A program made the position numbers and the translations under genes. From assembly GCA_947646585.1 (NCBI GenBank), contig CANSHD010000002.1, positions 136,997-200,996 on the forward strand: DNA of 64,000 bases, given 5' to 3'. Source of the DNA: an uncultured Alphaproteobacteria bacterium (GTDB lineage Bacteria > Pseudomonadota > Alphaproteobacteria > Rs-D84). Shown piece after piece: positions 4,923 to 58,499 of the stretch. Position 1 is the first letter of the stretch. Every line of letters begins with the position of its first letter. The notes beneath the pieces are model-generated. The model was not told where the DNA came from. It searched no databases and was given only the letters and a program-made list of their open reading frames with translations.

Positions 4923-7553
4923 TTAATCCATTCCGGCCGGCATATTTTTTAAACTGTCGCATTCGGATTTCTTTATGCAAAGGTTTTTGTCTTTGCCACG
5001 GAATGTTGGCGGAATTATACACCAGTTGTCAATCGGATGGTCTTTTTTCAAATCCGTGATATTCGGTTCTTCTTTTATTACACCATCTTCTTCTTTGCAG
5101 TACCCGTCTATTGCGTCGTCGCGTTCAACCGGAATTTCGGCAACGCATTTCGCGCTTTTGCCCCATTTGCTGCGCCGCCCCCCATTTTCCCAGCACAGGC
5201 ATGCACCCCATGACTGTGTTTGAACATTCAGTCCATAATCGCGCGGGCACATGTCTTCGCCGTCGCCGATTCTGAACAGGCTTTTTAAGTCTTTATAAAG
5301 CCCTTCTCCGAAATTAGATACGCAGAAATTGTCCTTGTCATACACATTCGGACGTATGAACTGGTATTCGACAAAACGGCCCTGCAGATTGCCGCACTGC
5401 GTTGTTAAGGTGTCGATTATCTGGTTATAGATTTCTGTTGCAACGCCGGTCGGACGCAGATAACGGTGCTTTATCGCATTGGGTTCCGGTTTTTTGTTAA
5501 TCTGCTGGGTTGATATCAGACCGTAAATATTTGTGGCGTCGGTCGCATTGTTGTTGGCAACCCATACCTGGCCGCTGTTGTCGTCTTTTGCCATCGTTGC
5601 CTTATATTTATCAAATCCGCCGAATGCTTGCTCTATTATTTTGGGGTCGCTGCAGGCGGGGATTGTGGTTAACTGTTTCGCGCATTCGGATTTGTATGCC
5701 GCGGTTTTCTGTGTAGTTGTTCCGTCTTTGTTTTCATATTCAACTGTCAAAGGGCCGTCTTCTGCGGTCGTGTCATACAGTGTGAACCAATCCGGCGCAC
5801 TGTTCTCGTCTGCGAACAGGCCGCTGTACGGATAGTAAAAGTTTTCATAGCGGCTGCCGCCGTACTTGTCAAAACACTGTTTTACAACGGCGCGGCACGC
5901 GGTCAAAGTATCCGTGTCGGTGCGCTTGTTGATATATTCCTTAACAATATCCTCGTCAAACATGTTGTTGCACGAATTCACATAATCCGTGCACAGTTTG
6001 TCGTTTAAGACGATACGGTGCGGCTGGACCAGTACGCTGGCGTCGCCGGTTAATTCTTTCATTGCGTCGGTAATCGATGTGTCGCCGTTCATATAGCATG
6101 CGGATACGAAATCAAAGCAGCCCTGGCGAATCTGGGCCACTTTTGCCTTTTGGGCATAGTATATGTCCAGCATGGCTTTGTCCAAGTATTCGGACCAGAC
6201 CGTGTCGGCCTGTTCGGTGCATTTGTCCAATGCGGGTTGCGCAAATTTTTTTACGCGTTTTTCAAAATTCTGAACAAAAATGCGGTTGCTGTAAACCTTG
6301 GTTAATTTTTGATCCGCAGCATCCACCCCGGACGGGAACGTCAGCAGCTTTTCCAGCTCGTAAAAATTGGCGACGCCCGCAATCGGCGCGCCCGTGCTGA
6401 TGTCTATGAATTCGCCGTTGTCCAGGCACTTGTGATATCCGGCGCCGCAAACCTCTTCGCTAAGAATTGCGTTCTCTACATTTGTCAGGCAGGACGAGAT
6501 ATCGTCCGAATTGTGTTTTTGCCGATTTTCAACACGCGCCAGGTCCAGCATCGCACTGCCCTCGCGGACGGCGGATTTCATCTGCTTTTGCTTTTCAGCT
6601 ATCGCTGTTTCCACCGTGTTGCAGTCCTGCTCTATCGCCATAAGATATGCGGTAATCGCACGCTGCAGCGATGCGTCGTTACAGTCCGCCTTGACCGCGT
6701 TCCGGCACTGGGGATATACGGCGGAATACAGGTTCTGGCCGTTGTATGCGGCGATGGCTTGGCCGGCGTCGGTCATGCCGAACGCGTTCGCCGTGTCAAA
6801 TGAAATGTTTATGCTGTTTAAATCGGAGTATTTGCCGCCGACCGTACTGTCCGTGCCGCGAATAGAGTTCATGATTGCCTGCAGCAGCGCCTTGGATGCG
6901 GACGTGTCCGACGTTAATGCGTTTTCCCCCTCCGATGCGGTTTTCATGGCGCCGGCCTGGGCGGCGGTCATGCCGACAACGTTCAGGTTTTCCGTGAACA
7001 CGGTCAGCTGTTCGCCCGCGTCCTGTAATATTTTGCGTGTTTCGGCCAAATCATATACGCGGTTGCTGCACGAACAGCGGCGATAGTCGTCGTTCTTTAG
7101 CGTACAGAACTGGTCCATGCAGGTAAAGTATGCGTTTTTGCACTGCTCGTATGCGGCGCCGGTGCGGGTCTCCGACATTGTTGTCGCCGTGGCGGCGGCG
7201 CGCGCGGTATTCGGCGCGGCGGCTGTGCGTGCGGATACCCTGGGGGCGGTTGAACTGCGCGGCGCGGTCGTGGCGGTGCGCGCGGCGGTCGGCGTTGCGG
7301 CTGTTCGGGCGGTGACGTTTTGGGCGGACGATTTGTTTGATGCCGTCACGCGCGATGCGGTTGTGCGACCCGGCAGTGCCGTCGTGCGTGCGGTTTGCGC
7401 TTTATCGGTTGTTGTCGCGCGCTGAACCGTGCCGGTTGTCTGGCGCACGGTGGCGTTTCCATCACGAACAGCACCCCGGGCCAGACCCGCGGATGCCAAG
7501 AGATATGTCGCAAAAATCAGAATTCTCTTCATCTCTGATAAAAATGTTAGCAA
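4923..7553 (-). CDS. Large secreted protein. Signal peptide, about 100-aa Thr/Ala/Arg/Ser low-complexity region, then a Cys-rich domain. Paralog of 54886..57279.
   Basis: 876 aa. N-terminal signal peptide. The motif AYEQCKNAYFTCMDQFCTLKNDDYRRCSCS is shared with the 797-aa paralog (GYAACREAYATCMDQFCAKANDTYRRCYCS). Many conserved Cys. No known domain recognised. Confidence 0.7.
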   Translation of the reverse strand: MLTFLSEMKRILIFATYLLASAGLARGAVRDGNATVRQTTGTVQRATTTDKAQTARTTALPGRTTASRVTASNKSSAQNVTARTAATPTAARTATTAPRSSTAPRVSARTAAAPNTARAAATATTMSETRTGAAYEQCKNAYFTCMDQFCTLKNDDYRRCSCSNRVYDLAETRKILQDAGEQLTVFTENLNVVGMTAAQAGAMKTASEGENALTSDTSASKALLQAIMNSIRGTDSTVGGKYSDLNSINISFDTANAFGMTDAGQAIAAYNGQNLYSAVYPQCRNAVKADCNDASLQRAITAYLMAIEQDCNTVETAIAEKQKQMKSAVREGSAMLDLARVENRQKHNSDDISSCLTNVENAILSEEVCGAGYHKCLDNGEFIDISTGAPIAGVANFYELEKLLTFPSGVDAADQKLTKVYSNRIFVQNFEKRVKKFAQPALDKCTEQADTVWSEYLDKAMLDIYYAQKAKVAQIRQGCFDFVSACYMNGDTSITDAMKELTGDASVLVQPHRIVLNDKLCTDYVNSCNNMFDEDIVKEYINKRTDTDTLTACRAVVKQCFDKYGGSRYENFYYPYSGLFADENSAPDWFTLYDTTAEDGPLTVEYENKDGTTTQKTAAYKSECAKQLTTIPACSDPKIIEQAFGGFDKYKATMAKDDNSGQVWVANNNATDATNIYGLISTQQINKKPEPNAIKHRYLRPTGVATEIYNQIIDTLTTQCGNLQGRFVEYQFIRPNVYDKDNFCVSNFGEGLYKDLKSLFRIGDGEDMCPRDYGLNVQTQSWGACLCWENGGRRSKWGKSAKCVAEIPVERDDAIDGYCKEEDGVIKEEPNITDLKKDHPIDNWCIIPPTFRGKDKNLCIKKSECDSLKNMPAGMD

Positions 7554-8330: not shown

Positions 8331-8417
8331 GCGGATATGGCGGAATTGGTAGACGCGCTAGTTTCAGGTACTAGTGGCAGCAATGCCTTGGAAGTTCGAG
8401 TCTTCTTATCCGCACCA
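8331..8417 (+). tRNA. tRNA-Leu (anticodon CAG)
   Basis: Cloverleaf folded by hand. Long variable arm (class II). Anticodon loop tt-CAG-gt. 3' CCA encoded. Confidence 0.9.
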
Positions 8418-8423
8418 CGTTTT

Positions 8424-8499
8424 GGGGTTGTAGCTCAGTTGATAGAGCGCTACGTTCGCATCGTAGAGGTCGTGGGTTTGAGTCCCATCAGCTCCACCA
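8424..8499 (+). tRNA. tRNA-Ala (anticodon CGC)
   Basis: Acceptor stem ggggttg/cagctcc with a G3:U70 pair. Anticodon loop ttCGCat. CCA encoded. Confidence 0.9.
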
Positions 8500-8511
8500 A
8501 AATTTAAAAAC

Positions 8512-8537
8512 AAGGCCACGAAAGTGGCTTTATGTTT
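8512..8537 (+). terminator. Hairpin with U-run inside the tRNA cluster, between tRNA-Ala and tRNA-Leu
   Basis: aaggccacgaaagtggctttatgttt. Confidence 0.4.
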
Positions 8538-8544
8538 ATCTGCC

Positions 8545-8631
8545 GGGGATATGGCGGAATGGTAGACGCTGAGGACTTAAAATCCTTTGGTTATTGCAAC
8601 CGTGTGGGTTCGAGTCCCACTATCCCCACCA
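8545..8631 (+). tRNA. tRNA-Leu (anticodon TAA)
   Basis: Acceptor ggggata/tatcccc. Anticodon loop ctTAAaa. Long variable arm. CCA encoded. Confidence 0.9.
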
Positions 8632-8640
8632 AGCGTTGAC

Positions 8641-8717
8641 GGATGTGTAGCTCAGCTGGTTAGAGCGCTTCGTTCACATCGAAGAGGTCGTTGGTTCGAG
8701 TCCAATCACATCCACCA
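8641..8717 (+). tRNA. tRNA-Val (anticodon CAC)
   Basis: Acceptor ggatgtg/cacatcc. Anticodon loop ttCACat. CCA encoded. Confidence 0.9.
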
Positions 8718-18366: not shown

Positions 18367-18623
18367 ACAAGCGTGTGCTTTCAATATATAATTTATTACG
18401 TCGGCGGGTGTTCCGTCGGCGGGGTGTCAGAACCTCTGCTTTGGCGTCAGACAAAAGTGGCGCGACGCGCCTTTTTTGATATGACGAAAAACAAACTCCT
18501 GAACCGCGGGTCAGGAGGGTTGCGAATATATTGAATAAGCACACAATTCCAAAGATTGTTCTGAACCTCCTGACCACCAAATTTTGGTGGTTTTTTCGTT
18601 TCGAAAAACAGGAGAAAAGAATA
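18366..18623 (+). promoter_or_regulatory. Type A structured leader, copy 1: candidate riboswitch or attenuator
   Basis: Promoter-like tatataat, then three mutually exclusive hairpins. P1 is ctcctgaaccgcgggtcaggag (18497-18518). The antiterminator pairs ggtcaggagg with cctcctgacc (18567-18576). The terminator is ccaccaaattttggtgg followed by T6 (18576-18596), about 12 nt before the RBS caggag. The element is about 90% identical to 60599..60865. Confidence 0.65.
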
Positions 18624-19112
18624 ATGAAACCAAAACTTTTTATGTCGGTCATATTATGTTCGACCGCCGTTAATACATGTTACGCACTTGGTACCACAAA
18701 ACTGTGCTGTGATATGGTCCATGTGGAGGGGAGGCCATGTAAATGTTATGCAGACTCGTCCGGCAGTTGTGCGCACTGCTCTGTCAGTGGCGGTGGTTGT
18801 ACAGACTGTGACAGTACCGATTGGGCGCCGACCGGCACCGCCGGATATGAATCCAGAATCAACGCGCTGTGCATGCTTATGACCGGAAAGTGCAACAAAA
18901 CGACAGAATATCGGTGCGCCGCCGGGTATTATGGGAAAAGCATGAACGGAACGTCCGGGTGTACGCGCTGTCCGTCGTCGGGCGGCGTATATGGTACAAA
19001 TACGGCCGGCGAGAATACCGACATAACGTCGTGCTGTATCCCTGCGAACAGGACAATGACCGATACAAAGGGAACATTTACGTTTACCGATGAATGCTGT
19101 TATTCAAATTAA
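18624..19112 (+). CDS. Small secreted Cys-rich protein, family member A1 (GCC2/GCC3 or ephrin-receptor-like C-terminal module)
   Basis: Signal peptide MKPKLFMSVILCSTAVNTCYA. Conserved C-terminal EYRCAAGYYG..NGTSGCTRCPSSGGVYGT...C shared with five paralogs in the window. Confidence 0.7.
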   Translation: MKPKLFMSVILCSTAVNTCYALGTTKLCCDMVHVEGRPCKCYADSSGSCAHCSVSGGGCTDCDSTDWAPTGTAGYESRINALCMLMTGKCNKTTEYRCAAGYYGKSMNGTSGCTRCPSSGGVYGTNTAGENTDITSCCIPANRTMTDTKGTFTFTDECCYSN

Positions 19113-20653: not shown

Positions 20654-20730
20654 CGGGGTGTAGCTCAGTCTGGTAGAGTACTTGCATGGGGTGCAAGGGG
20701 TCGTAGGTTCGAATCCTGTCACCCCGACCA
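20654..20730 (+). tRNA. tRNA-Pro (anticodon GGG)
   Basis: Acceptor cggggtg/caccccg. Anticodon stem cttgc/gcaag with loop atGGGgt. T-loop ttcgaat. CCA encoded. Confidence 0.85.
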
Positions 20731-24003: not shown

Positions 24004-24029
24004 AAAAAACGCCATGCGGCGTTTTTTTA
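24004..24029. terminator. Bidirectional terminator
   Basis: aaaaaacgccatgcggcgttttttt. Confidence 0.6.
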
Positions 24030-24662
24030 ATTTTTGTAATAGCAGTCGCCGGTATAAGTGCCGGAGCCAGCGGCGTCACTGAACGCGGTTCCCGATGGCA
24101 GATAGCATGCGGTTATGGCCGTGCTGCCTGCGGCGGACGTGCCGTAAATGCCGCCGGATGCCGGACAGCGCGTACAGCCGGACGTGCCGTTTGACGTTGT
24201 GCCGTAATATCCCGCCGCACAGCGGTATTCCGTGCCGGTGGTTAACGTACCGTTGCAACTGCATTTCTTGACGGTGCGCTTTTCATATCCGGTACTGTGT
24301 GCCGTCCATGCGCCCGTGCTTGCGCCGCTGCAGCTTTTGCATTTCGCACAGCGGTTGTTTATACAGCCATATGATATACTGCCGCCACAGTCGCTGTCGG
24401 AATAGCAGCCGCATGTGAATGTAATTGTTTTGTTGAACTGTGCGTCAATACAGTTGCATGAATATGACCCTCCTTTGCCGCTGCCGCACATGAATGTGCC
24501 CAGGGTATCATCCCATGTCTCGTCCAGACAGGCGCCGGTATCGCATATGCAACTGCCGCTGCCACCGTCCGAGCATGGAATGTTATATCCGTCGTATGCG
24601 CTTGCGGTCGCATTTATACATATTGCGCCCAGCGCTCCGATAAACACTGCCTTTGTATTCAT
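24027..24662 (-). CDS. Secreted Cys-rich protein, family member B1 (211 aa)
   Basis: Signal peptide. C-terminal TEYRCAAGYYGTTSNGTSGCTRCPASGGIYGTSAAGSTAITACYLPSGTAFSDAAGSGTYTGDCYYKN, nearly identical to the C-terminus of 25860..26363. Confidence 0.7.
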   Translation of the reverse strand: MNTKAVFIGALGAICINATASAYDGYNIPCSDGGSGSCICDTGACLDETWDDTLGTFMCGSGKGGSYSCNCIDAQFNKTITFTCGCYSDSDCGGSISYGCINNRCAKCKSCSGASTGAWTAHSTGYEKRTVKKCSCNGTLTTGTEYRCAAGYYGTTSNGTSGCTRCPASGGIYGTSAAGSTAITACYLPSGTAFSDAAGSGTYTGDCYYKN

Positions 24663-24950
24663 TATCCCAACTCCTTTTTTCCTTTTGTGTTGATAAAGAA
24701 AAAAACCGCCAAGGAAATGGCGGTCGGGGAGTTAAGAAAATCATAATTGAAAATGACCCCGGCGGTCTTTGGGCGCGTATGCGCCCTGTTCTATAACCGA
24801 CGGCTCCCCGACCGGTTAAGGACAGGGTATGTACAATAAAAGGCGCCAATGCGCCGCAACTGTACCTTGCGGATTCAGCCGGTTGCCCGACCGTTCAATT
24901 ATGGGTTTTCTTACGACCCCGAACCCAATATCCCTTTGGATTCGTTTATG
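24663..24950 (-). promoter_or_regulatory. Type B structured leader, copy 1 (inverted relative to 25560..25859)
   Basis: The reverse complement aligns with 25560-25859 at about 85-90% identity. It carries the same hairpins: ccccga/tcgggg, ggtcggggag/ctccccgacc, and the terminator accgccatttccttggcggtttt. Confidence 0.6.
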
Positions 24951-25559: not shown

Positions 25560-25859
25560 TATCGTGGTTATGCGCTATAATCTGCCTGAATTCAATAGGG
25601 ATATTGGATTCGGGGTCGTCAAAAAGCCCACACAAAAGCGGTATGTGAACGCATGCTGTATCCGCATATATTGCGGCGCGATTGCGCCCTTTATTGTATA
25701 TGCCCCGATTTTAACAGGTCGGGGAGCCGTCGGTTATATAACAGGACGCCATGCGTCCAAAGACCGCCGGGGTCATTCTTTTGTGTGATTTTTTGAACTC
25801 CCCGACCGCCATTTCCTTGGCGGTTTTGTGTTTGATATAAAACCAAGGGGTCAAAAATC
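25560..25859 (+). promoter_or_regulatory. Type B structured leader, copy 2
   Basis: Contains hairpin ggacgccatgcgtcc. The antiterminator pairs ggtcggggag with ctccccgacc. The terminator is accgccatttccttggcgg followed by a T-run, about 25 nt before the ATG. Confidence 0.6.
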
Positions 25860-26363
25860 ATGAAAAAATTAACAACATCGGTATTGCTGGTTTTCGCCGG
25901 TATGTTGGGCGATGCGCATGCTGAGTTTAGCTGCTGTGGCGGTGCCAATGTGCCGGTTGGTGCGAATCCGACATACGACAGCAGCTGTACAACCAAGGTC
26001 AGTGGCGAAACATTGTTTGATAATGCGGGATGCTGCGCCTCCGGTTCGATAACCAGTACGACAAATGGTGTCATATCGACCAGAACATGTACAACAAGAG
26101 CCAGTTATAACAGTTTAACGAATACGGTCAGTGCAATCTGTAGTTGCGGTACGGCAACATATAAATGTGCGGTTGGATATTATGGCAGTCCAAAGAATGC
26201 CTCATCGGGTTGTACGCGATGCCCGGCGTCGGGCGGTGTTTACGGTACCACGGCCGCGGCCGGCGCCACGTCAATAACCAAATGTTATCTGCCGTCCGGC
26301 ACGGCGTTCAGTGATACCGCCGGCAGTGGCGAATACACCGGAAACTGTTATTATGTTGAGTGA
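25860..26363 (+). CDS. Secreted Cys-rich protein, family member B2 (167 aa)
   Basis: Signal peptide MKKLTTSVLLVFAGMLGDAHA. C-terminal module conserved with B1. Confidence 0.7.
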   Translation: MKKLTTSVLLVFAGMLGDAHAEFSCCGGANVPVGANPTYDSSCTTKVSGETLFDNAGCCASGSITSTTNGVISTRTCTTRASYNSLTNTVSAICSCGTATYKCAVGYYGSPKNASSGCTRCPASGGVYGTTAAAGATSITKCYLPSGTAFSDTAGSGEYTGNCYYVE

Positions 26364-29742: not shown

Positions 29743-30036
29743 CTATGAATAGTGACAGTTTTCTGTCAGAACATAATTGCCGGTTGTGTCGCTGTATTCT
29801 CCGGCCGGCATATAGCATGCGCCGATATCGGTGCTGTTCTCGTTGTCACTGGTCGGAGAGCCGTGTACTTCGTTGCTGCCGTTTGGGCGCGGTGGCGGAC
29901 ATTGGCGGCATGTATTGGTATCCGTAAGATAGTACTTGCTTTTGCACTTTGTGTAATAATTTGTAAGTGTCACGCACTCGGCGATTGCGGTTGTCGGAAT
30001 GATGGTTGCAATAATTATACAATATATTGTTTTCAT
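29743..30036 (-). CDS. Small secreted Cys-rich protein (97 aa), distant member of the family
   Basis: Signal peptide. C-terminal CRQCPPPRPNG...GACYMPAGEYSDTTGNYVLTENCHYS echoes the family C-terminus. Confidence 0.5.
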   Translation of the reverse strand: MKTIYCIIIATIIPTTAIAECVTLTNYYTKCKSKYYLTDTNTCRQCPPPRPNGSNEVHGSPTSDNENSTDIGACYMPAGEYSDTTGNYVLTENCHYS

Positions 30037-30052: not shown

Positions 30053-30406
30053 TTATACCTGGTCCTGACAGGGGCACAATGGTAATGTTGTATCTGTTAC
30101 GACTTCATATCCGGTAAGGCCGGTTGTCGGCTCGCATGTACCGGAAGGATATGATGAATAATACCAGCCGCTGTTGTCTTCTGTTTGAGCTGTAGGGGCT
30201 GGCGGCCGTGCAGTGCATGTGTTGTTCCTTGACACAAATCCTGTCGGGCAGACTGGTCCGTAGACCCCTTTGCAGCGTTTGGTTTTATCATTACAAATGG
30301 TATTACAGCACGCTGTGGCCGTGGCATATGTGACGGCAATTGCGGGTTTGACGCAGTAAACGCATGCAATTATGCCAACTGTGCATGTATATGTAAAAAG
30401 TTTCAC
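30053..30406 (-). CDS. Small secreted Cys-rich protein (117 aa)
   Basis: GTG start with RBS aggag. Signal peptide. 12 Cys. Confidence 0.5.
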   Translation of the reverse strand: MKLFTYTCTVGIIACVYCVKPAIAVTYATATACCNTICNDKTKRCKGVYGPVCPTGFVSRNNTCTARPPAPTAQTEDNSGWYYSSYPSGTCEPTTGLTGYEVVTDTTLPLCPCQDQV

Positions 30407-30712: not shown

Positions 30713-31795
30713 TTATTGCTGATGTTTTGTATTTTTAGACTGCAACGCGTCGCTGTTTGCGACGATGCATGCCCTGAACTGGCCGACGCATGTGGTTATG
30801 TCGTTGCGGGTACTGCCGGATTGTATGGCCTTGTCGCAAGACTTGTTTTCCGCCAGCGCATTTTCACATGGCATGTTGACGCTGCAGTTGGGCTGGTTTT
30901 GGGCGCATGATATCGTCATGTTGTTAAAAGACAACAGTGCGGTTCTGTCCGTGGCCAGCTGGCGCCGTGCCGCGCCAATGTCGCCGGACGTGACGGCGGA
31001 TTGGATTTTTGCAACGTTTCGCAGCAGGCACTGCATGACCGCGGCACTTGTTGTGGCCGTGCCAATACAGTCTTCGGCGTTTGCCAGCCCCTGCTGTGTA
31101 CGGACCCCACCGGAACCGGAGCCGTATCCGTATGATCCGGCGCCGCCGCCGGAGTCGGCATCGCCCGATGCCGACGTTGCGCCCGCTGTCTGTAATTTTG
31201 TGGTAAGGACCGCTTTTTCCAGCTGGGTTCTAAAACGGCGTATCATCGCCTCCATGTAATCGTACTGTTTGTTCATCTGCTGGGCGATTACGGTTGTCTT
31301 AAGGGCGACCACGTCTTTCATCAATTGCTTGTCGGCGCCGGCCGGGTTTGTGTTTTGGCCGATGTTGTATGCATGAACACTGCACAGGGCCAGTGTCGGC
31401 GAAATGCGGTCGTTTTCTTCTTTGTCGCATCCGTCGCCGCCATCGGATGTGCGATGGCCGATAACGGTCACGTCGCCCAGCATTGTGGGGTTGTCTTGTA
31501 ATGTGATTGTCCGGCCGTTTAATTCGCTGGGCGAAAATGTTTGCGGGCTTGTCCCGATATAGCTTATTCGTACCGTTTTTGTTTCGTTCGGTACGTTAAA
31601 ATCAAATCTTCCGTCTATATCGGCCGCCGCACCGCCAATGTTCTTGGTTGTATCCGTTGCACTAAATGCCTGAATTGATGCACCGATGGCCGGTTCGTTA
31701 CCGTCTGCGGTGATAACGCGGCCATGAACACGCACCGCATTTGCGGCGCCAATGCTCATGATAAACAACAACAAAGACAGACAGATTTTATGCAA
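30713..31795 (-). CDS. Secreted protein with an N-terminal CarboxypepD_reg-like beta-sandwich and a Cys-rich C-terminus
   Basis: VRVHGRVITADGNEPAIGASIQAF...TKNIGGAAADIDGRFDFNVP...TVRISYIGTSPQTF fits the CarbopepD_reg pattern. The C-terminal Cys spacing resembles that of the 876- and 797-aa paralogs. Confidence 0.6.
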   Translation of the reverse strand: MHKICLSLLLFIMSIGAANAVRVHGRVITADGNEPAIGASIQAFSATDTTKNIGGAAADIDGRFDFNVPNETKTVRISYIGTSPQTFSPSELNGRTITLQDNPTMLGDVTVIGHRTSDGGDGCDKEENDRISPTLALCSVHAYNIGQNTNPAGADKQLMKDVVALKTTVIAQQMNKQYDYMEAMIRRFRTQLEKAVLTTKLQTAGATSASGDADSGGGAGSYGYGSGSGGVRTQQGLANAEDCIGTATTSAAVMQCLLRNVAKIQSAVTSGDIGAARRQLATDRTALLSFNNMTISCAQNQPNCSVNMPCENALAENKSCDKAIQSGSTRNDITTCVGQFRACIVANSDALQSKNTKHQQ

Positions 31796-41453: not shown

Positions 41454-41575
41454 TTCCCCCGCCATACGGCGGGATTTTTTTGTGTAATTATTACTGGATT
41501 GCCGCGTCGGCGCAGGCGCCTCCTCGCAATGACAATGGGGATACAGAATAAAACAACCGCCCCCGCAGGGGCGGT

Positions 41576-41907
41576 GTGCAGATACACTATAAGCCGGATT
41601 CTGTACTGCCGCGGGCCCAGTCTTTTCACAACCACGCCCGGGTAGCGAACATAATTAATCTGCATTTCGTGTTGCCACGAATGTCAAGCCTTCTACCCGC
41701 CCCCAATCCTGGGACTGGTCACAGGGGGCCTATTTGAAGTTGCTGCGCATAGAGATTGGCCGTTTCACTCGAACTAAATCGATTCGTCACTGTTCCTCTA
41801 ATCGTCGGGTCGCCCCGCCCGGTCATTAGCCGGTATGCCGTCCCATGCAGTCCGGACTTTCCTCCGACCCATAAGGCCGGCTATGTTCCGTGCATCTTAC
41901 GCGTGCA
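41576..41907 (-). ncRNA. rnpB: RNase P RNA (bacterial type A, apparently reduced P12 region), followed by a terminator at 41549-41575
   Basis: The minus strand reads GGAAAGTCCGGACTGCATGGGACGGCATACCGGCTAATGACCGGGCGGGGCGACCCGACG ... CAAATAGG ... GGGTAGAAGGCTTGA ... ACAGAATCCGGCTTA. This tracks the E. coli M1 RNA P4/P5/P15 consensus. The 3' flank is accgcccctgcgggggcggt followed by a T-run. Confidence 0.8.
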
Positions 41908-42024: not shown

Positions 42025-45000
42025 ATGTCCAAAATTATACGCGTTTTTGCGTGCTTGTTCACGTTGTTTTTTGTAGGCTCAGCATATGCGGCGGGATATA
42101 CCTGTAATGATTTAAAGAAATACACGTCGTGTTCGTCCGGGTATTATATGACCAAGGGCGGTGTTTATAACGGCACAGCCCAGGTTGGCAATGCCTGTAC
42201 GGCGTGTGCGTCGGGCTGTACGTGCGCCGGCGGAACCGCGGCGCCGGTATGCGGCAAGACGTGTGCGGCGGGAACTTATTGGAACGGCAGTGCGTGCGCG
42301 ACATGTCCCAACGGATATTACTGTCCCGGATTTTCAAATGTTCAAAACCCGGAGACAAATTACGGGCGCAACGCGTGCCCGACCGCAAACTCGACAACTG
42401 CGGCGGCATCGTCGGCTTACCCGGATGTGTTTTATCCATATACGTCGACATCGGGTTCGGTGGATAAAACCACAGCGCCGACACGCAATTCAATCGGTAA
42501 TCAATCCTGGAACAGTTCTGGATCCGCCATTACGGATTGTAAGGCATATTATGGATTTAGTGGCGCCGGCGGTTATTTCCAAGCGGATAATGTGCGCTAT
42601 AATACCTCGACCGGCAAATACGATAACTTCTCCGGCGCTGATATATATTACAGCAGTGCCGTGGCCGGTTATTACCTGTACACCAAGTACAGCGATACAT
42701 ATTGCAACACAGGCACAAACCGCATGTTGTATAGAAAAGCGGTCGCCTGCCCTGCCGGGTCTTATTGCCCGGGCGGAAGTGTTCCGCAATGTAGTACCGG
42801 TACGCATAACAACGAATGGGGGCGTAATACTTGTCCGGCGGGTAAGTATTGTCCAGCCAAGTCTTCGGCAGGCACAAACTGTGCCGCCGGAACGTACCGC
42901 AGCGCGACAGGCGGTACCGCCGCCAGCAGCTGTACGGCATGTGCGATAGGTTCTTATAGTTCGGCCGGGGCGACCGGGTGTACGGCGTGTACCGGTGGCA
43001 AGACGACAACCGCCACGGGCCAGTTGTCATGTAACGCGACATGTACAAACGCCACCGGAGCCAGCACATGGACCGCCGCATCATGGTCGGCCAACAGTGT
43101 GACAAACAAGTGCGCAATTAATGCATGCGCGACCGGATACACCCGTGGCGGCACGGCCAGCAGTACCGGAACCAGCTCTTACACATGTTCGGCGAACTGT
43201 AATGCGATTACATTGAACGCAACGCAAAACGGCGGCAGCGGCACCGCAACGACGCTGTATAAAAAGTCCGGCTCAACAACGTGGTACAGCAATAATGCCT
43301 GCTCTACTACGATAACCACCCTGTCGTCGCGCCCGACCAAGACGCACGCGACATATGCGGGACATTATAACACCCGCGCCGCATCCGGCGGGACGCAGTG
43401 CGTGACCGCGACGGGCGCGCTTAGCACCTCGACCTCTTGCAACGTAACGGGCGCAACCACTTTTTATCCGCAGTTTACATGTAATACGGGTTGGACCAAT
43501 GCGGGTACGCGCATTTCAGGGACATGTACGGCGACAACGAACACGATAACGCTGAACAAAAACGGCGGTACGGGTACTTGTGGCGGTCAAAGCGGCACAA
43601 CAAACGGCAGCACGACATGTACCACGGGCAGCACCAAGTCCCTGCCGACATGGGACAGTAGCAGCTGCAGCATAACCAACGGAAACGAGATATTTAAGGG
43701 CTGGTCCACCAGCAGCAGCGCAACCAGTGGTTCAACGTCCATAACATGTCCGACGGGCGCCGCGACATACTATGCCGCGTGGACGACGCCGACATGCAGT
43801 GCGACGAACGGAACATGCGCGATAACCACGCCCAGCAGTAATGCGCCGCGTGGGACGATAAGCTGCTCCATGGGATACAGCCAATCCGGTGGCACAAATC
43901 GCACAACCAGCTTTACCGTCACGGGTAGCGCGGGCGGTACCAGCGTGTCCGGGACATGTTATGCTGTGACCAGCACCGTATCGTTCAATCTGAACGGTGG
44001 CAGCGGCAACCAGCCGAACAATGTTACGGCCACATACGGCAGCAATATGCCGGCGCTTAGCACCAGTGCCAACCCGTCACGCACAGGATATACTTTCGGC
44101 GGTTGGTATGACACCAGCGCTGCAACCGGCGGAACCCAGTATTATAATACCAGCCGCGGTTCAGCGCGTACGTGGAACAAGACGGATGCCAGTGTGACGC
44201 TGTACGCGCGCTGGACCGCCAATACATTCACGGTTGTTTATAACCTGAACAATGGAACCGGGACGAAGCCGGCAAATAAAACTTGTACCTATAATAGCGC
44301 GTGTGCACTGGATGCCGGAACCGGTACGGGTTATTATCGTAACGGATATGTATTAAAGGGTTGGAGCACCACCAGCAGCGCAACGAGCGGCTCGTTCGAC
44401 GGCAAGAATTTAGCGGCCAGCGGCACTGTAAACGTGTATGCGGTATGGACGCCTTGCGGCGCCGGCACCGCCAAGGCCGCCGGCACCGCTGCGGCAACCA
44501 CATGTACGACCTGTGCGGCGGGTACATATACAAGCACAACGGCTCAGTCCAGCTGTGCGGTATGCAGTGGCAATACATATAACGCAGAAACAGGCAAGAC
44601 ATCTTGTAGCGCATGTCCAGATGGATACGGCATCAGTGGCACGGCGGCCGCAGACCATGATGCCAAGGGCGACTGTAAGATTAGCTGCTCGGGCGGTAAT
44701 CGTGTTGCGACATCTGACGCAAAGTGCACGACCAGTGCCGGAACCGGATACTATATTGCAAATCATACGGTATCTGCAGGCACTACGTCACCGGCGGCAA
44801 CGCAGTGCCCGGTCGGATATCGTGACGGCGCGGCGACAGATGACCAGGGCAAGTGTGTAATGAACGTTGTAAAGGGTAAGTACGTTGCCAAAGCTAATGA
44901 TGAAGCGGCAACCAAGTGTGCGGCTGGCACGGCAAGGACGGCGCATACTGTGACATATGGTAAAACATCGTCATGCAGTGCATGTACGGGGCGTACCAAG

Positions 45001-46248
45001 TGGAGTGCGGAAGGGGCTGAGACCTGCAGCACGGTGTCAAATGGGTACTATACTACGGGTTGCACGAATAACAACAACTGTACCGGCCAGTCACAGTGTA
45101 CAGGCGCAACATACTGCAGTGGGGGTGTTCAGAACAATTGTCCGGCGGCGGAAAGCACCTGGACCCTGGGGACGGGAACCGGTTGGTCGGCGGTCACCAG
45201 CTGCTTTGAAACAAAGGCGGCCACAGCGGTCAGCACATATTGCAGCGAGGGCCAGTTGAAGAAAAATGCGACCAACACGACAACATGGGGCGCGGCGACC
45301 ATATCAAGTGCCTTTAAGGCAAAGGCGGGTTCGATAGTGTCCGGTCAGACATGTACGCAGTGTACCGGCGCGACATACAGTGCGGGTGGCACGGTGACGG
45401 AATGCGCCGCCTGTCCGACAGGGTATGCGTCAAACACAACGGCGGGCAAGACAGTCGTCGGCCAGTGCCAGGCGTCATGTGCGGCGGGATATGCGGTACA
45501 GACTGCGAACGAGGCCTGCAAGATAGTCGCCAGCGGTTATCAGACCGGCACTCACGTCGTCAGCTATGGTTCCAAGACTCCGACGGCGGCGGACAGCACC
45601 AGCCCGGCGGCGGGAACATGGTACAGCTGTCTGACGAATTATAGCGCGTCCGGCACGGCGGCCACAGACCATGACGCGCGCAGCGACTGTAAAATAAGCT
45701 GCGGCGCCGGTACACGGATTGCGTCCGCGAACGCGACCAGCTGCACCACCCCCAGCGGGAACTGGTATGTCGGCGCGCACAGCGTCGCGGCAGGCAGCGC
45801 GTCGTCGGTCAGCAGCTGTCTGACGAACTATACAATTGGCGGTAGCGCGGCAACGGACCACGATGCGGCGGCGGATTGCAAGATAAGATGTGGCGGCGGT
45901 GCGTATGTTGCCAAGGCAAACGATACGTCCTGTACGAATGTCGGTGCGGGATACTGGGCGGCGGCCTCGACCGTGTCGCAGGGAAGTGCCGGCAGTCGTA
46001 CGGCATGCGCGTCGGGTCTGACGACAATCGGGTACGGTGCGGGCGCGGACGAGGCGGCGGATTGCGGTCATATCCTGCATCTGGGCGACAGCAAGCTGTA
46101 TCTGCGCAGTACGAAAAAGACCACGCCGTCGTTGAATGTAAAGATTGGCGACAGCACCTTCTATGGCAACATGAGTACGGCGACCAAGGGCAAGCTGCGC
46201 GTCAAGAAAGACAACACTACCTACAGTGTTCACGACGACAGCATGTAA
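42025..46248 (+). CDS. Giant secreted Cys-rich protein (about 1400 aa) with tandem CxxC...GxY (GCC2/GCC3 or ephrin-receptor-like) repeats and Listeria-Bacteroides (Flg_new) repeats
   Basis: Signal peptide MSKIIRVFACLFTLFFVGSAYA. Many repeats of the form C.AGTY....G....C..C. The segments TGYTFGGWYDTSAATGG...VTLYARWT and YVLKGWSTTSS...VNVYAVWT match the Flg_new pattern. Confidence 0.75.
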   Translation: MSKIIRVFACLFTLFFVGSAYAAGYTCNDLKKYTSCSSGYYMTKGGVYNGTAQVGNACTACASGCTCAGGTAAPVCGKTCAAGTYWNGSACATCPNGYYCPGFSNVQNPETNYGRNACPTANSTTAAASSAYPDVFYPYTSTSGSVDKTTAPTRNSIGNQSWNSSGSAITDCKAYYGFSGAGGYFQADNVRYNTSTGKYDNFSGADIYYSSAVAGYYLYTKYSDTYCNTGTNRMLYRKAVACPAGSYCPGGSVPQCSTGTHNNEWGRNTCPAGKYCPAKSSAGTNCAAGTYRSATGGTAASSCTACAIGSYSSAGATGCTACTGGKTTTATGQLSCNATCTNATGASTWTAASWSANSVTNKCAINACATGYTRGGTASSTGTSSYTCSANCNAITLNATQNGGSGTATTLYKKSGSTTWYSNNACSTTITTLSSRPTKTHATYAGHYNTRAASGGTQCVTATGALSTSTSCNVTGATTFYPQFTCNTGWTNAGTRISGTCTATTNTITLNKNGGTGTCGGQSGTTNGSTTCTTGSTKSLPTWDSSSCSITNGNEIFKGWSTSSSATSGSTSITCPTGAATYYAAWTTPTCSATNGTCAITTPSSNAPRGTISCSMGYSQSGGTNRTTSFTVTGSAGGTSVSGTCYAVTSTVSFNLNGGSGNQPNNVTATYGSNMPALSTSANPSRTGYTFGGWYDTSAATGGTQYYNTSRGSARTWNKTDASVTLYARWTANTFTVVYNLNNGTGTKPANKTCTYNSACALDAGTGTGYYRNGYVLKGWSTTSSATSGSFDGKNLAASGTVNVYAVWTPCGAGTAKAAGTAAATTCTTCAAGTYTSTTAQSSCAVCSGNTYNAETGKTSCSACPDGYGISGTAAADHDAKGDCKISCSGGNRVATSDAKCTTSAGTGYYIANHTVSAGTTSPAATQCPVGYRDGAATDDQGKCVMNVVKGKYVAKANDEAATKCAAGTARTAHTVTYGKTSSCSACTGRTKWSAEGAETCSTVSNGYYTTGCTNNNNCTGQSQCTGATYCSGGVQNNCPAAESTWTLGTGTGWSAVTSCFETKAATAVSTYCSEGQLKKNATNTTTWGAATISSAFKAKAGSIVSGQTCTQCTGATYSAGGTVTECAACPTGYASNTTAGKTVVGQCQASCAAGYAVQTANEACKIVASGYQTGTHVVSYGSKTPTAADSTSPAAGTWYSCLTNYSASGTAATDHDARSDCKISCGAGTRIASANATSCTTPSGNWYVGAHSVAAGSASSVSSCLTNYTIGGSAATDHDAAADCKIRCGGGAYVAKANDTSCTNVGAGYWAAASTVSQGSAGSRTACASGLTTIGYGAGADEAADCGHILHLGDSKLYLRSTKKTTPSLNVKIGDSTFYGNMSTATKGKLRVKKDNTTYSVHDDSM

Positions 46249-54885: not shown

Positions 54886-57279
54886 GTGATAGAATACCAG
54901 CAGAGAGATGTAAGTTTGAGCATTTGTTCTGCGCAAATTTTTAAAGTTTCATTGTTTGTTGCGGCATTGATTGGCGGCGGCAATGCCTTTGCTGCCCAGG
55001 CGCCCAATCCGCGCGGCGGTGCGGCATCGGCCACAACAGCGACGGCCAGTGCGCGTACCGACGGCCGTGATGTGCGTCGCGGCTCCGTTCAACAGGCGCC
55101 GTCCGCAACCGTATCACGCAGTGCGACGCGGCGTCCGGCCACAACGGTTGTTCGCACCGCCACGGGCAAGACGTCAAGCGCGGCGTCGAATGTTTCGGCG
55201 CGCAGTGCGACGGCGACACCGCGTACGGCGGTATCCGCGACAACGGCAACGCATACAACGGCGGGACGCGCCGCGTCATCGAATGTTGTACGCAGCGCCA
55301 CCGGCGCATCGTCTGCGCGCAGCGCAACGACCGCGAACGTATCGCGTGCGGCAACGGCGCGTGCGACGGCGGTGTTTGAGGATATTTCGGCCATCGGCGG
55401 CGGATACGCCGCATGCCGCGAGGCGTATGCCACATGCATGGACCAGTTTTGCGCCAAGGCGAACGATACGTATCGCCGCTGTTATTGCAGTTCCAAATTT
55501 ACGGAATTTCGTGACACGGAAAACGCCCTGGAGCAGGCAAAGACCCTGTTGATGCAGTTTGAGGATAATAATCTGAACGCCGTTGACAAGACCGCGGCTG
55601 AGGTCAATGCAATGTACAGCGCCACGGTCGGCGAATTGGCGATTAAAAAGGATACCAGTGCGGCCGCAAACACGCTGAATGAAATCGGCGACCTGTTGTC
55701 GGGAAAGAAAAAGGCCACAACATCCAACAGCTCGACAACGTCTTTGGGTATCATGTCGTTTGATTTTACCGAAGATGTCGATGACATATGGTCCGGCGGC
55801 GGCAGTTCTATATTCAATACCTCGTCGGGCGAGGATTTAAGCCAGCTGGAGGGCCAGAAACTGTATGATTCCGCCAATTCACAGTGCTTAAAGATTATTG
55901 CGGAATCGTGCGAAAACAACGCGGTCTTAACAATGGCGCGCAGTGCGTACAACATCCTGATAACCCAGGACTGCAACGCATATGAAAAGAAAATAAACAA
56001 TCAAAAGGAAGCGGTAAAGCAGACCGTGCGCCAGGCGGAAAAGATTTTGCGCGATGCGCGTCTGGAGGAATATCGTGCGCATAATTCCGCAGACGTTAAC
56101 GAATGTTTGGACAAGGTTCGCACCGCCCTGACCCAGGATACGGCATGTGGCGCCAACTATAAAAGATGTTTGGACTACAGCGGCGTTTATATCGAACAGA
56201 ATACCGGCGACCCGATTTACAGCCCTCGCCTGTTCCAGCTGGTTGAACAGATAAATCTGGACGGCTCGTCGGACGTTCTGGGGCGGAACGCACAATTCAA
56301 CCAGTTCCTTGATTCAAAGAAAATGTTTGCGACAACCGCGCTGGATTCATGCCGCGATATTTCCGACATCGTTTGGACCGAATTTAAGCGCAGCGCCCTG
56401 ATTGAAATCGCCCAGGCCCAGGACGCCAAGATAGAAGAAGTAAAGATGTCGTGCGTCAGCACGATGGCCGACTGCTATGACACACAGTCGAACGCCCTGA
56501 AAAGCTTTGACAACACGACGTCACAGTATTCCGGTGCAACCGCCGCATACGCCGCGCGCACCATGTGCCAGGACAAGGTTGCCGCATGCGCCGCATTATA
56601 TGCGGGACCGAACGATGTCCAGTGCCAGTTTGACGCCAACGGTCGCCTGACAAACGGTGCGGTATGCGGTTTGACGGCGTTGGTCAGCTTTGTGCAGACG
56701 GTTGACGACGTTCGTGTGGCCGAGGGGTGCGCGACGGCGCTGGAGAACAAGCTGAAAGATACGTGCACGCCGCAAACCGGCGACAAGGGATATCCGTGGA
56801 ATTGCCGCGGCATGTCGGCCAGCCAATTGCGCGCCACCGTTCAGCAATATGCGCAAATGTATTGCGCCGACCCAACAACGCAGACTTTGGCGGCGGAAAC
56901 GGAATCGACCGTAAACAAGACCGTTCAGGACCTGTATGAAGAGCTGGACTATCAGTTGATGGAGGCCTGTGAAGAGGTTGACGGATACTGGCTGGATAAC
57001 GATGCCACGATGCCGGACGGCGTATCGGGCAAGTTGGTTACGGCGTTTTATTCGAACACGTTTGGCGGGCGCCAGGGTGCGGACGAACTGTCGTGGGGCC
57101 AGTGTGTCCAGAATGACACGATGATTCAGTGCCTGTCGTACAATGGCGACAAAGACGAGCCTGTTGCGACATACGACAGAAACAAGGACGAATGCACATT
57201 TACCGATGCGTGGTATGAAAATCACTGCACGCTGATGAACGGTTATTATGAAGGCGGCATCTGCTATGTTGCGCCATAA
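54886..57279 (+). CDS. Large secreted Thr/Ala/Arg/Ser-rich plus Cys-rich protein. Paralog of 4923..7553.
   Basis: Non-ATG start (GTG at 54886, or TTG at 54915). Low-complexity region ARSATATPRTAVSATTATHTT... Shared motif CREAYATCMDQFC...YRRCYCS. Confidence 0.7.
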   Translation: MIEYQQRDVSLSICSAQIFKVSLFVAALIGGGNAFAAQAPNPRGGAASATTATASARTDGRDVRRGSVQQAPSATVSRSATRRPATTVVRTATGKTSSAASNVSARSATATPRTAVSATTATHTTAGRAASSNVVRSATGASSARSATTANVSRAATARATAVFEDISAIGGGYAACREAYATCMDQFCAKANDTYRRCYCSSKFTEFRDTENALEQAKTLLMQFEDNNLNAVDKTAAEVNAMYSATVGELAIKKDTSAAANTLNEIGDLLSGKKKATTSNSSTTSLGIMSFDFTEDVDDIWSGGGSSIFNTSSGEDLSQLEGQKLYDSANSQCLKIIAESCENNAVLTMARSAYNILITQDCNAYEKKINNQKEAVKQTVRQAEKILRDARLEEYRAHNSADVNECLDKVRTALTQDTACGANYKRCLDYSGVYIEQNTGDPIYSPRLFQLVEQINLDGSSDVLGRNAQFNQFLDSKKMFATTALDSCRDISDIVWTEFKRSALIEIAQAQDAKIEEVKMSCVSTMADCYDTQSNALKSFDNTTSQYSGATAAYAARTMCQDKVAACAALYAGPNDVQCQFDANGRLTNGAVCGLTALVSFVQTVDDVRVAEGCATALENKLKDTCTPQTGDKGYPWNCRGMSASQLRATVQQYAQMYCADPTTQTLAAETESTVNKTVQDLYEELDYQLMEACEEVDGYWLDNDATMPDGVSGKLVTAFYSNTFGGRQGADELSWGQCVQNDTMIQCLSYNGDKDEPVATYDRNKDECTFTDAWYENHCTLMNGYYEGGICYVAP

Positions 57280-57296
57280 CAAAATATGGAACGGAT

Positions 57297-58499
57297 ATGA
57301 AGAAGTATTTTGCGACTTTTGTGATGATGTTTGCGATAATGCCGGCGTTTGCGATAAACCTGGTCGGGGATACCGCGCGCGGGTGGTGGAATATAGGCAC
57401 GGGTAATGTAACCGGCGGGCCGGAGGAGTTTATTATTGACGGATGCATCGGCAAGAACTGTTCGCACGGTACATATGGTGATGAATGGGGTGCGGTTGCA
57501 ATGATTGCCGTTCAAATTGTTGAACACGGCGGTTATTTTTGCCCGTATCAGGTACAATGTGCGAATAAACGCAAAAAGAAGAGAACTTGGACGGTGTATT
57601 ACCGGCCGAGCGGTTATTCCAAAGATAAATGTGCATGGTTGTGTGAGCCCGGATATAGTGGTACAAATTGTGCGCCGGCCGAGAATATTCCGTTGGCATG
57701 CGATGAAAAACCGCAAAAGAAAACCTCGGGCGGACGTTTTTCCGGCTTGAGTTTGAAGACATGGGGCGGCGATTCCGAAGGTGTGGAGAGCGAAGTCTGG
57801 GGATTTAGCCAGTGGGGAAGCGACCCCGAATGCGATACGTTGCTGGGTATTGTTAAGTATTTGGAGCATGGCGTAATTGCGGGTGCGGTTAATGTGTGCT
57901 GTGGACGCGATAATTGGAAGGGTATCGATTCTTTTATCGGTAGTATCGGCACCTCGCAGGTAAGCCAGAAATTATTGTGTGCCGAAGGCTATACCGCCAA
58001 TGCGGGTGCGAATGACTGTGTGCCGGTCGATGCTGATTTTTGCGCGGTGCAGAATATGTCGTTTTGTCAGAATTTCGACCGTGGCGGATATGATAAAACA
58101 ATTCATTATCTGGATTCCAGCAGCGGTTGTGTAAAGTATTTGTGCAGCGAAACAGGAACGGCATTCCCGGCGGTGGGCGATACGACATGCGCGCCGTGCG
58201 GCACGGGCGCCAAGGGCGGTCCGAGTCCCAAAAACGGCGTTTGCGTTGTATGTCAAACCGGTCAGATTTTTGATTCCGAGAGCGGTACGTGCGTGTCCGC
58301 GGCCGCCTATTCCAAAAGTGACCTGCAGTACGGCAAGGCACAGACCAAAAATTCGATAAGCGTGTCCAAGCAGTGCTGGACGTTAACCACGCCGGAAGAA
58401 TATACGGTATGCGTTACCAGCGGCGGCGCCCGCACGCCGGCGGGCGCCGCCTCGTCCGGCGCGACGGTTCGCGCCGCGCGACAGCCGATACGTCGATAA
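57297..58499 (+). CDS. Secreted Cys-rich protein with an EGF-like motif
   Basis: Signal peptide MKKYFATFVMMFAIMPAFA. CAWLCEPGYSGTNC fits the EGF spacing. Confidence 0.6.
   Translation: MKKYFATFVMMFAIMPAFAINLVGDTARGWWNIGTGNVTGGPEEFIIDGCIGKNCSHGTYGDEWGAVAMIAVQIVEHGGYFCPYQVQCANKRKKKRTWTVYYRPSGYSKDKCAWLCEPGYSGTNCAPAENIPLACDEKPQKKTSGGRFSGLSLKTWGGDSEGVESEVWGFSQWGSDPECDTLLGIVKYLEHGVIAGAVNVCCGRDNWKGIDSFIGSIGTSQVSQKLLCAEGYTANAGANDCVPVDADFCAVQNMSFCQNFDRGGYDKTIHYLDSSSGCVKYLCSETGTAFPAVGDTTCAPCGTGAKGGPSPKNGVCVVCQTGQIFDSESGTCVSAAAYSKSDLQYGKAQTKNSISVSKQCWTLTTPEEYTVCVTSGGARTPAGAASSGATVRAARQPIRR

Follow-up and report, generated by a model that had tools for sequence, protein, structure and literature searches.

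The stretch of DNA analyzed here (the window) comprises 64,000 nucleotides of chromosome, with a GC content of about 52%, from an uncultured alphaproteobacterium of the Rs-D84 lineage (GenBank assembly GCA_947646585.1, contig CANSHD010000002.1, positions 136,997 to 200,996). It carries six open reading frames (ORFs) for small, cysteine-rich proteins, at 18624-19112, 24027-24662, 25860-26363, 29743-30036, 30053-30406 and 60866-61372. The original prediction, made from the sequence alone, was that these encode a family of secreted proteins with a C-terminal block of the GCC2_GCC3 or ephrin-receptor-like type, and that four of the genes lie behind a single type of RNA leader. The finding is real and moderately interesting, although the GCC2_GCC3/ephrin-receptor-like label is wrong. 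What is new is a lineage-restricted family defined by its C-terminal module, together with a structured, terminator-containing leader RNA, both of them previously undescribed.

Five Exported Cysteine-Rich Proteins Share a C-Terminal Module

All six ORFs were intact. In each case the N terminus had a basic n-region, a hydrophobic h-region and a small-x-small cleavage site, with predicted cleavage at ASA/Y, AHA/E, CYA/L, AMG/A, AIA/E and AIA/V; these signal peptides were called heuristically from the sequence letters, and the assignment of Sec signal peptides to all six proteins was upheld. The signal peptides contained no lipobox ([LVI][ASTVI][GAS]C), and inspection of the six sequences revealed no LPXTG motif or C-terminal transmembrane segment.

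We built a profile hidden Markov model (HMM) of the C-terminal module from database homologues and ran it on the six-frame translation of the window. It matched five of the six ORFs, with E values from 4.8e-33 to 7.2e-9, and nothing in the window beyond those five genes. Four of them encode proteins of similar size: member 1 (18624-19112, + strand; 162 aa with 19 Cys, consisting of a signal peptide, a Cys-rich head and the module; E = 9.4e-27), member 2 (24027-24662, - strand; 211 aa, 22 Cys; E = 4.8e-33), member 3 (25860-26363, + strand; 167 aa, 13 Cys; E = 5.4e-31) and member 4 (60866-61372, + strand; 168 aa, 16 Cys; E = 9.7e-23). The fifth is a minimal version (29743-30036, - strand; 97 aa, 6 Cys; E = 7.2e-9; hhalign probability 95.6%, E = 1.3e-8) that retains only the signal peptide and the last sub-domain of 68 aa, and its gene comes second in a unit of two genes. 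The sixth ORF (30053-30406, - strand; 117 aa, 12 Cys), which lies 16 nt upstream of member 5 on the same strand, also encodes an exported Cys-rich protein. It gave no match to the module HMM and an hhalign E value of 0.3, and was rejected as a distant relative. A C-terminal block had been proposed for all six genes; it is therefore common to five of them.

Between the paralogues in the window, DNA identity within the module was 55-69% and the longest shared word was 15 nt. The copies are old, and with values this low gene conversion of the cassette type is unlikely; antigenic variation via cassette recombination was rejected on the same grounds.

The Module Is a Constant Domain Joined to Variable Heads

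A word-indexed database search found 144 close homologues, all unnamed or annotated as "hypothetical" and mostly from metagenome-assembled genomes (MAGs) of Alphaproteobacteria. Those with a named source were all alphaproteobacterial, except for one protein from a MAG labeled Lachnospiraceae; none was eukaryotic. An exhaustive profile search extended the set to 1297 representatives at 50% identity with E<=1e-3 (580 at E<=1e-10), nearly all of them 150-250 aa long with the module at the very C terminus. Related genome loci came from gut MAGs of mouse, rabbit, deer, yak, chicken and human, including Candidatus Enterousia, with several copies of the family per MAG. No relatives of the module were found among 2.9 million viral contigs, and a phage origin was rejected on this basis.

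Within the module about ten cysteine columns are conserved at >=80%. It terminates in ..NCYYxN, and the proteins nearly always stop one or two residues past CYY. The remainder of the protein behaves quite differently: over 118 homologues, identity to the window protein averaged 16% in the head and 59% in the module. In the homologues the module is partnered by unrelated heads, by saposin-like or CarboxypepD_reg-like domains, or by extra Cys repeats, of which some homologues insert one to four copies of the form CxxCPxNAxCxGGxxFxCxxGYYxxG. In others (e.g., P0156 and P0185) the module is split into two sub-domains by an inserted domain. The CarboxypepD_reg-like domain found between the module halves in these two proteins is of the same type as that at the N terminus of a 360-aa exported protein encoded in the window at 30713-31795 (- strand; Pfam E = 2e-8), the C-terminal half of which is Cys-rich.

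An AlphaFold model of full-length member 2 had a mean predicted local distance difference test score (pLDDT) of 82, rising above 90 for residues 110-211. When the module was modeled alone, it was predicted to be a set of beta-hairpins with a pLDDT of 91.8 and a predicted template modeling score of 0.75. With no lipobox or LPXTG motif present, the conserved block is better described as a folded domain than as a lipobox or sortase-type signal. Family proteins are thus built in three parts: a signal peptide comes first, a Cys-rich head that is hypervariable follows, and the C terminus is formed by the constant beta-hairpin domain, which spans about 105 aa, has about ten conserved cysteines and belongs to no described family. 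Judged from the predicted model, it appears to represent an undescribed disulfide-rich fold without a counterpart among solved structures.

Its position raises the question of whether the module is primarily a domain for sorting, secretion or anchoring, recognized by dedicated machinery in the envelope in the manner of the C-terminal domain (CTD) of type IX secretion system (T9SS) substrates or of S-layer-homology anchors, with the variable heads as cargo. The strictly C-terminal location, the end point just after CYY, the constancy of the module beside unrelated heads, its attachment to diverse heads and other domains, and the reduction of member 5 to a signal peptide plus the last sub-domain would all fit. 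However, neither Pfam nor NCBIfam contains a sorting-domain family that it resembles, PEP-CTERM and the T9SS CTD included, no conserved machinery genes lie nearby, the genes being scattered among housekeeping genes, and the interruption of the module in P0156 and P0185 would be unusual for a sorting tag. We regard this explanation as unlikely. Another idea, that these are secreted antimicrobial or toxin-like peptides, resembling defensins or Cys-rich bacteriocins and directed against competing gut microbes, draws on the fact that the proteins are small, exported, present in multiple copies and about 8-12% Cys. Against this, there are no adjacent genes for immunity, transport or processing, there were no PHROG or defense-type matches, and a length of 160-250 aa exceeds that of typical class II bacteriocins, so that an antimicrobial role is very unlikely.

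Relationship to Eukaryotic Cysteine-Repeat Families

A Pfam scan of the six small proteins returned no family at E<=10, and scans of the same proteins against NCBIfam and PHROGs returned nothing. Ephrin_rec_like (PF07699, formerly GCC2_GCC3) was not matched at E<=1 by any of 123 aligned homologues, nor by any of 20 longer or repeat-extended homologues. The 123 homologues gave only scattered, inconsistent matches below threshold (Sortilin_C, Dumpy, VSP, TNFR_ELAPOR1), and the repeat-extended ones only sub-threshold scraps (VSP, Furin-like_2, EGF_MSP1), the best being 15.9 bits against a cut-off of 31.4 for the Giardia VSP family (E = 0.0061) and E = 0.31 for Furin-like_2. A sequence-profile search of the PDB with the module yielded chance matches only, such as an antibody complementarity-determining region 3 ("YYCARGYYGSS"), and the predicted module matched no known fold, including the Cys-rich region of Eph receptors and the disulfide ladders of the TNFR type.

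There is one point of contact. The module motif C-A-A-G-Y-Y-G-x7-G-C-x2-C-P corresponds to the start of the Ephrin_rec_like consensus and, at the level of that motif, the likeness is real. The same motif links the small proteins to a large exported repeat protein of 1422 aa (42025-46248, + strand; the ORF is open from 41980, with the signal peptide starting at the Met at 42025). This protein contains Listeria-Bacteroides repeats (Pfam Flg_new, E = 1.2e-13) and was the only one to reach the Ephrin_rec_like threshold, which it barely passed (E = 3.9e-5; 23.8 bits against 23.1). Among the six-frame ORFs of the window of >=100 aa (47,441 residues), the motif CxxG[YTSF][YWF]-x5-13-CxxC occurred eight times: four of the small proteins have one copy each, and the other four copies are in the 1422-aa protein, where the motif takes the form CAAG[TS]Y..CxxC. 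The cysteine spacing had been described as iterated many times in this protein; the short motif is indeed present, but in four copies and with no match to the module HMM. The best hhalign alignment of the module to the 1422-aa protein had an E value of 0.036 and a probability of 1.4%, over 31 columns next to the Ephrin_rec_like stretch, and a search with a 138-aa fragment of the protein found no homologues. Its kinship with the small family would appear to go no further than the motif.

The module could still be a highly diverged repeat of the Ephrin_rec_like, TNFR or furin-like type, taken from or mimicking eukaryotic receptors, with the proteins acting as host-mimicking effectors. The fit of its motif to the start of the Ephrin_rec_like consensus, the recognition of the same motif by Pfam in the 1422-aa neighbor, the overlap of the best hhalign stretch on that protein (residues 872-902) with the end of the Pfam stretch (848-882), which it runs just past, and the weak VSP and Furin-like_2 matches of homologues with one to four extra Cys repeats are all compatible with this. 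However, the total lack of Pfam matches at E<=10 for the six proteins and at E<=1 to Ephrin_rec_like for the homologues, the chance nature of the PDB matches, the poor hhalign score, and the bacterial origin of every named homologue make such descent distinctly unlikely, and host mimicry by the small proteins would be speculation. Because there was no significant profile match to any eukaryote-like Cys-repeat family, whether GCC2_GCC3/Ephrin_rec_like, TNFR or furin-like, the "eukaryote-like" label is refuted for the small proteins, which do not form a demonstrable GCC2_GCC3/ephrin-receptor-like family.

A Structured Leader RNA Precedes Four of the Genes

The regions upstream of members 1-4 aligned as two pairs and folded far better than shuffled sequences (z scores -5.7 and -4.9). 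We refer to these as type A, preceding the genes starting at 18624 and 60866, and type B, preceding those starting at 24662 and 25860. A covariance model (CM) found exactly four copies in the sense orientation in the window, in agreement with the claim that four genes share one leader. The type-A cores lie at 18480-18603 (+ strand; CM R1 score 119.8 bits, E = 3e-28; fold z score -5.7) and 60717-60842 (+ strand; 115.3 bits, E = 4.5e-27), and the type-B cores at 24693-24841 (- strand; 40.2 bits, E = 5e-8) and 25690-25836 (+ strand; 37.0 bits, E = 3e-7). Since the type-B copies score at these levels with the CM, the two types are homologous. No CM match was found upstream of member 5.

The complete leader is about 225-290 nt long. 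In the 5' to 3' direction, the type-A leader consists of a sigma-70-like promoter sequence (TGGACA-17-TATAAT; 18364-18392, + strand, for the first copy), a GC-clamped hairpin (T1; GGCGC-N3-GCGCC plus a U-tract at 18459-18476, + strand, directly 5' of the core), ACGACGAAAAA, an upstream copy termed X (ACUCCUGA), the 5' strand of a closing helix P1 (GGUCAGGAGG), a hairpin P2 with a conserved GAAUAU..AAUA loop, a hairpin P3 (ACAAUU/GAUUGU), the 3' strand of P1 (AACCUCCUGACC), and a terminator T2 (GACCACC..GGUGGUUUUUU), followed by a Shine-Dalgarno (SD) sequence, CAGGAG, and the start codon. In the core at 18480-18603, P1 is GGUCAGGAGG/CCUCCUGACC and X is ACUCCUGA; a terminator scan located T2 at 18572-18592 plus the U-tract (+ strand), and the SD sequence is at 18609-18614 (+ strand). 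Type B has the same architecture, with P1 formed by GGUCGGGGAG/CUCCCCGACC and, in the copy at 24693-24841, the terminator GACCGCC..GGCGGUUUUUUU. P1 is a perfect inverted repeat of 10 nt, and for this reason the CM also scores the antisense strand. The T2 stem is GACCACC/GGUGGUU, of which GACC is common to the P1 3' strand.

The window contains exactly four hairpins of the T1 type, one directly on the 5' side of each leader core; in addition to that at 18459-18476, they lie at 24838-24855, 25675-25692 and 60693-60710. The regions containing them span 18400-18476, 24838-24935 (- strand), 25590-25692 and 60630-60710, and T1 was also seen within the 55 nt on the 5' side of the leaders at other loci (L001, L013, L048, L078 and L092). 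At other loci T1 is enclosed by a covarying helix (GCGUCR...YGACG), whose 3' strand corresponds to the conserved ACGACGAAAA with which the core begins, and the full leader therefore has two domains. The T1 domain may be one of two attenuators in tandem, an insulator, or a component of the sensor.

The SD sequence of the type-A genes (18609-18614, 60851-60856 and type-A loci generally) is a conserved CAGGAG. The same hexamer forms the core of the P1 5' strand, and it is the complement of each of the two CUCCUG copies that the leader contains. From the sequence, this complementarity suggests an additional, translational layer of control in which the SD sequence would be sequestered.

Conservation of the Leader and the Genes It Precedes

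Scanning metagenomes for the type-A P1 pattern gave 63 loci, and a CM built on 61 sequences produced 105 matches in 93 sources. In the resulting alignment 92.5% of cells were paired, against 83.2% in shuffles (0 of 500 shuffles), and 20 of 25 base pairs showed compensatory changes on both sides; slid controls gave 24-51%. These covariation statistics are optimistic, because the alignment comes from fitting to the model, is made up of related sequences, and includes a few rows that are antisense copies of the palindromic P1. P2 occurred in 50 sequence variants, nearly all of which fold; native halves averaged -4.2 kcal/mol, against -2.5 for chimeric pairs. P1 occurred in 13 variants, its 3' strand being complementary over 6-10 nt in all of them. 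In most variants there was also a matching upstream X copy that varied together with the P1 5' strand (its own complement over 5-9 nt), a few being weaker or needing G-U pairs; this X:P1 pairing was scored by counting complementarity sequence by sequence, the X region being unaligned in the CM alignment. The consensus preferred by RNAalifold was the alternative state, in which X pairs with the P1 5' strand and the full terminator forms. MAFFT plus RNAalifold alone missed P2 due to misalignment, and P2 was recovered by supplying the structure by hand and realigning with the CM.

When the whole window was scanned with the 4227 Rfam families, nothing reached gathering threshold at the leaders. 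Below threshold, both type-B leaders resembled sRNA-Xcc1 (32.2 bits at 24693-24841; 34.4 bits, E = 1.6e-4, at 25690-25836; gathering score 53), whereas type-A leaders gave no match to that family at E<=10.

The genes downstream were surveyed for 97 non-redundant leader instances, 83 of which had a complete downstream ORF. These ORFs start 17-28 nt after the leader model and have medians of 194 aa and 17 Cys. Seventy (84%) passed a crude signal-peptide test and 57 (69%) carried the module; most of those lacking it were other small exported Cys-rich proteins. A second exported family was found behind type-A leaders in other genomes, comprising proteins of about 111-121 aa with 11-12 Cys, a CCCPTG.TG...CPDGW motif and no module (L039:672-, L045:3596-, L056:6468-, L074:534-, L075:3689-, L041 and the L006:5024(-) region). 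Because the leader also precedes this second family, its regulon is broader than the module family. The survey supports the suggestion that these proteins form a repertoire, secreted or on the surface, under coordinated regulation, since exported Cys-rich proteins follow the leader in about 84% of cases.

These results bear on whether the element might instead be a mobile or repeated sequence (a palindrome like those of miniature inverted-repeat transposable elements or repetitive extragenic palindromes), or an independent small RNA (sRNA) gene of the sRNA-Xcc1 type, lying upstream of the ORFs by chance. The perfect inverted repeat of P1 with its antisense CM scores, the 32-34 bits with which type B resembles sRNA-Xcc1 along the entire model, and the terminator at the end of the element, from which a short RNA would be made, are what one might expect. 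However, the element is always in the sense orientation, and from its end to the start codon there are 17-28 nt, the SD sequence coming directly after the U-tract; it is strongly specific for one class of gene (84% exported, 69% with the module); its helices are preserved by compensatory changes over 13 P1 and 50 P2 variants; and the Rfam score is below gathering threshold for type B, with no match for type A. Chance placement of such an element is very improbable indeed.

Genomic Setting and Host Lineage

The family genes are single-gene units dispersed among housekeeping genes, which in this window include those for ribosomal proteins S1 and S9/L13, trigger factor, SecA, DnaE, ArgRS, iPGM, RNase P RNA and tRNAs. 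At 90% identity the S1 protein clusters with that of Candidatus Enterousia excrementavium. Enterousia belongs to the uncultured alphaproteobacterial order Rs-D84, members of which have genomes of less than 1 Mb, lack flagella, and have no pathways for synthesis of amino acids, nucleotides or fatty acids (PMC12306168). The host lineage is gut-associated and genome-reduced (PMC12306168).

Two more exported Cys-rich proteins are encoded on the + strand without a leader, one of 797 aa (54886-57279), with no Pfam match at E<=1e-5, and one of 400 aa (57297-58499), which contains 24 Cys and an EGF-like motif, CxWLCEPGYSGxNC. A 685-aa protein (16278-18335, + strand) has a coiled-coil N-terminal part, long Pro/Ala/Thr-rich regions of low complexity, a single predicted membrane span and, at the C terminus, a short tail rich in Cys (..CDDGTAPSADGCCGDEVYT..ACCSQSSGDCYPPMF), and matched no Pfam family significantly. 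On the - strand there is a run of large ORFs (4923-7553, 9184-10878, 10851-12617 and 12650-14146) with no Pfam family at E<=1e-5 apart from a Glyco_hydro_108 (phage-lysozyme-type) domain in 9184-10878; this run may be a mobile or phage-derived remnant, or a set of lineage-specific envelope genes. Ordinary features include a four-tRNA cluster at 8331-8714 (+ strand), another tRNA at 20654-20727 (+ strand), and a class A RNase P RNA at 41574-41899 (- strand; 180.8 bits), directly upstream of the gene for the 1422-aa protein.

Discussion

We put roughly 55% probability on our reading as a whole: the window carries members of a family of small, Sec-exported, disulfide-rich proteins specific to one lineage, the genome-reduced Alphaproteobacteria of the gut (Candidatus Enterousia and relatives, Rs-D84), with expression that would be controlled by the leader RNA. 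Most of our confidence lies in the existence of an exported, co-regulated repertoire, and much less of it in specific roles for the head and the module. The constant module may serve a function shared by all members, attaching them either to the cell envelope or to a partner they have in common, and the variable head may confer binding specificity towards the surfaces of host or partner cells. On the best reading of the sequence data, these would be binding proteins docked on the surface of a gut symbiont that is obligately dependent, and deployed via an RNA switch.

For the leader, we propose a mechanism of transcription attenuation. T1 would be transcribed first, followed by a three-way junction formed by P1, P2 and P3, in which the 3' strand of P1 overlaps the 5' strand of T2; alternatively, the upstream copy resembling the P1 3' strand would pair with the P1 5' strand. 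Because GACC is common to the 3' strand of P1 and the 5' strand of T2, P1 would have the role of antiterminator, and that of anti-antiterminator would fall to the upstream hairpin. In the OFF state, the upstream hairpin would form first and leave T2 intact. In the ON state, a ligand or factor stabilizing the P1 junction would take 4 nt from the T2 stem and allow read-through. Pairing of the CUCCUG copies with the CAGGAG SD sequence may mean that translation is gated as well. This layout is typical of a riboswitch or attenuator of the ON type, and the leader would define a regulon of small exported Cys-rich proteins.

A bolder proposal, which we put forward tentatively, is that the leader is a new class of attenuator RNA responding to a ligand or factor, a distant cis-acting relative of the sRNA-Xcc1 fold, which switches on dozens of small disulfide-rich exported proteins as one regulon; these proteins would make up the interaction surface of Ca. 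Enterousia/Rs-D84, with the module as a new disulfide-rich fold docking variable heads on the envelope.

Several points weigh against our interpretation. One family member (29743-30036) has no leader, the signal-peptide calls rest on a heuristic applied to sequence, and the covariation statistics err on the generous side for the reasons given above. The cysteines could bind metal rather than form disulfides, the host being an anaerobe without a respiratory chain. The module could itself be the active part and not an anchor, and the switch could be mediated by a protein, an sRNA or the ribosome, or could yield a stand-alone sRNA.

Bacteria of the Rs-D84/Enterousia group are widespread in animal and human guts. 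A large, exported family with hypervariable heads on a constant domain is the most obvious candidate for an interface with the host or a partner cell, and among the 97 leader instances the majority of downstream genes, all following a single dedicated putative RNA switch, belong to it. The leader also offers a handle, because the signal that opens it would tell when the organism deploys its surface. The analysis in addition corrects the unsupported label of a eukaryote-like receptor mimic.

How does this system compare with known ones? Like Ephrin_rec_like (PF07699), the module is an extracellular Cys-rich unit with the local motif CxxGxY-x7-10-CxxC(P). However, in the small family the unit is single and C-terminal rather than tandemly repeated, and every one of its sequences with a source name is bacterial, nearly all of them coming from a single group of gut Alphaproteobacteria. 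The VSPs of Giardia (PF03302) and the CXXC-rich surface families are likewise multi-copy, with about 10% Cys, CxxC motifs, and a variable N-terminal region joined to a conserved C terminus. The likeness to the VSPs is weak, the repeat-extended homologues having E values of 0.006-0.04 and 13-16 bits, far under the 31.4-bit cut-off. Unlike the VSPs, the small proteins have neither a transmembrane anchor nor a CRGKA tail, ending in ..CYYxN without a hydrophobic tail, and their module identities of 55-69%, with a longest word of 15 nt, provide no evidence of recombination between copies. Bacterial C-terminal sorting domains such as the T9SS CTD resemble the module in being constant, beta-rich domains of about 70-105 aa on diverse passengers with Sec signals. 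There is, however, no similarity to them in sequence or fold and no associated machinery was identified; the module is also disulfide-rich and sometimes interrupted by other domains.

Among RNAs, the type-B leaders align with sRNA-Xcc1 (RF02221) over the whole 87-nt model, sharing a P1 helix (GGnCGGGG../..CCCCGnCC) that encloses two hairpins and is followed by a pyrimidine/U tail. The present element differs in being a leader in cis that carries a terminator and has an alternative pairing with an upstream strand, and in lying before ORFs in gut Alphaproteobacteria, whereas sRNA-Xcc1 is found in integron cassettes of Xanthomonas. The leader also has much in common with riboswitches of the terminator/antiterminator type: it lies immediately 5' of an ORF and has a covarying multi-helix junction, a closing helix that would compete with an intrinsic terminator, and a third, competing upstream strand as a putative anti-antiterminator. 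It differs from them in matching no Rfam family at gathering score and in carrying two terminators in tandem. Finally, whereas riboswitches generally control metabolic or transport genes, the leader described here precedes genes for exported Cys-rich proteins.

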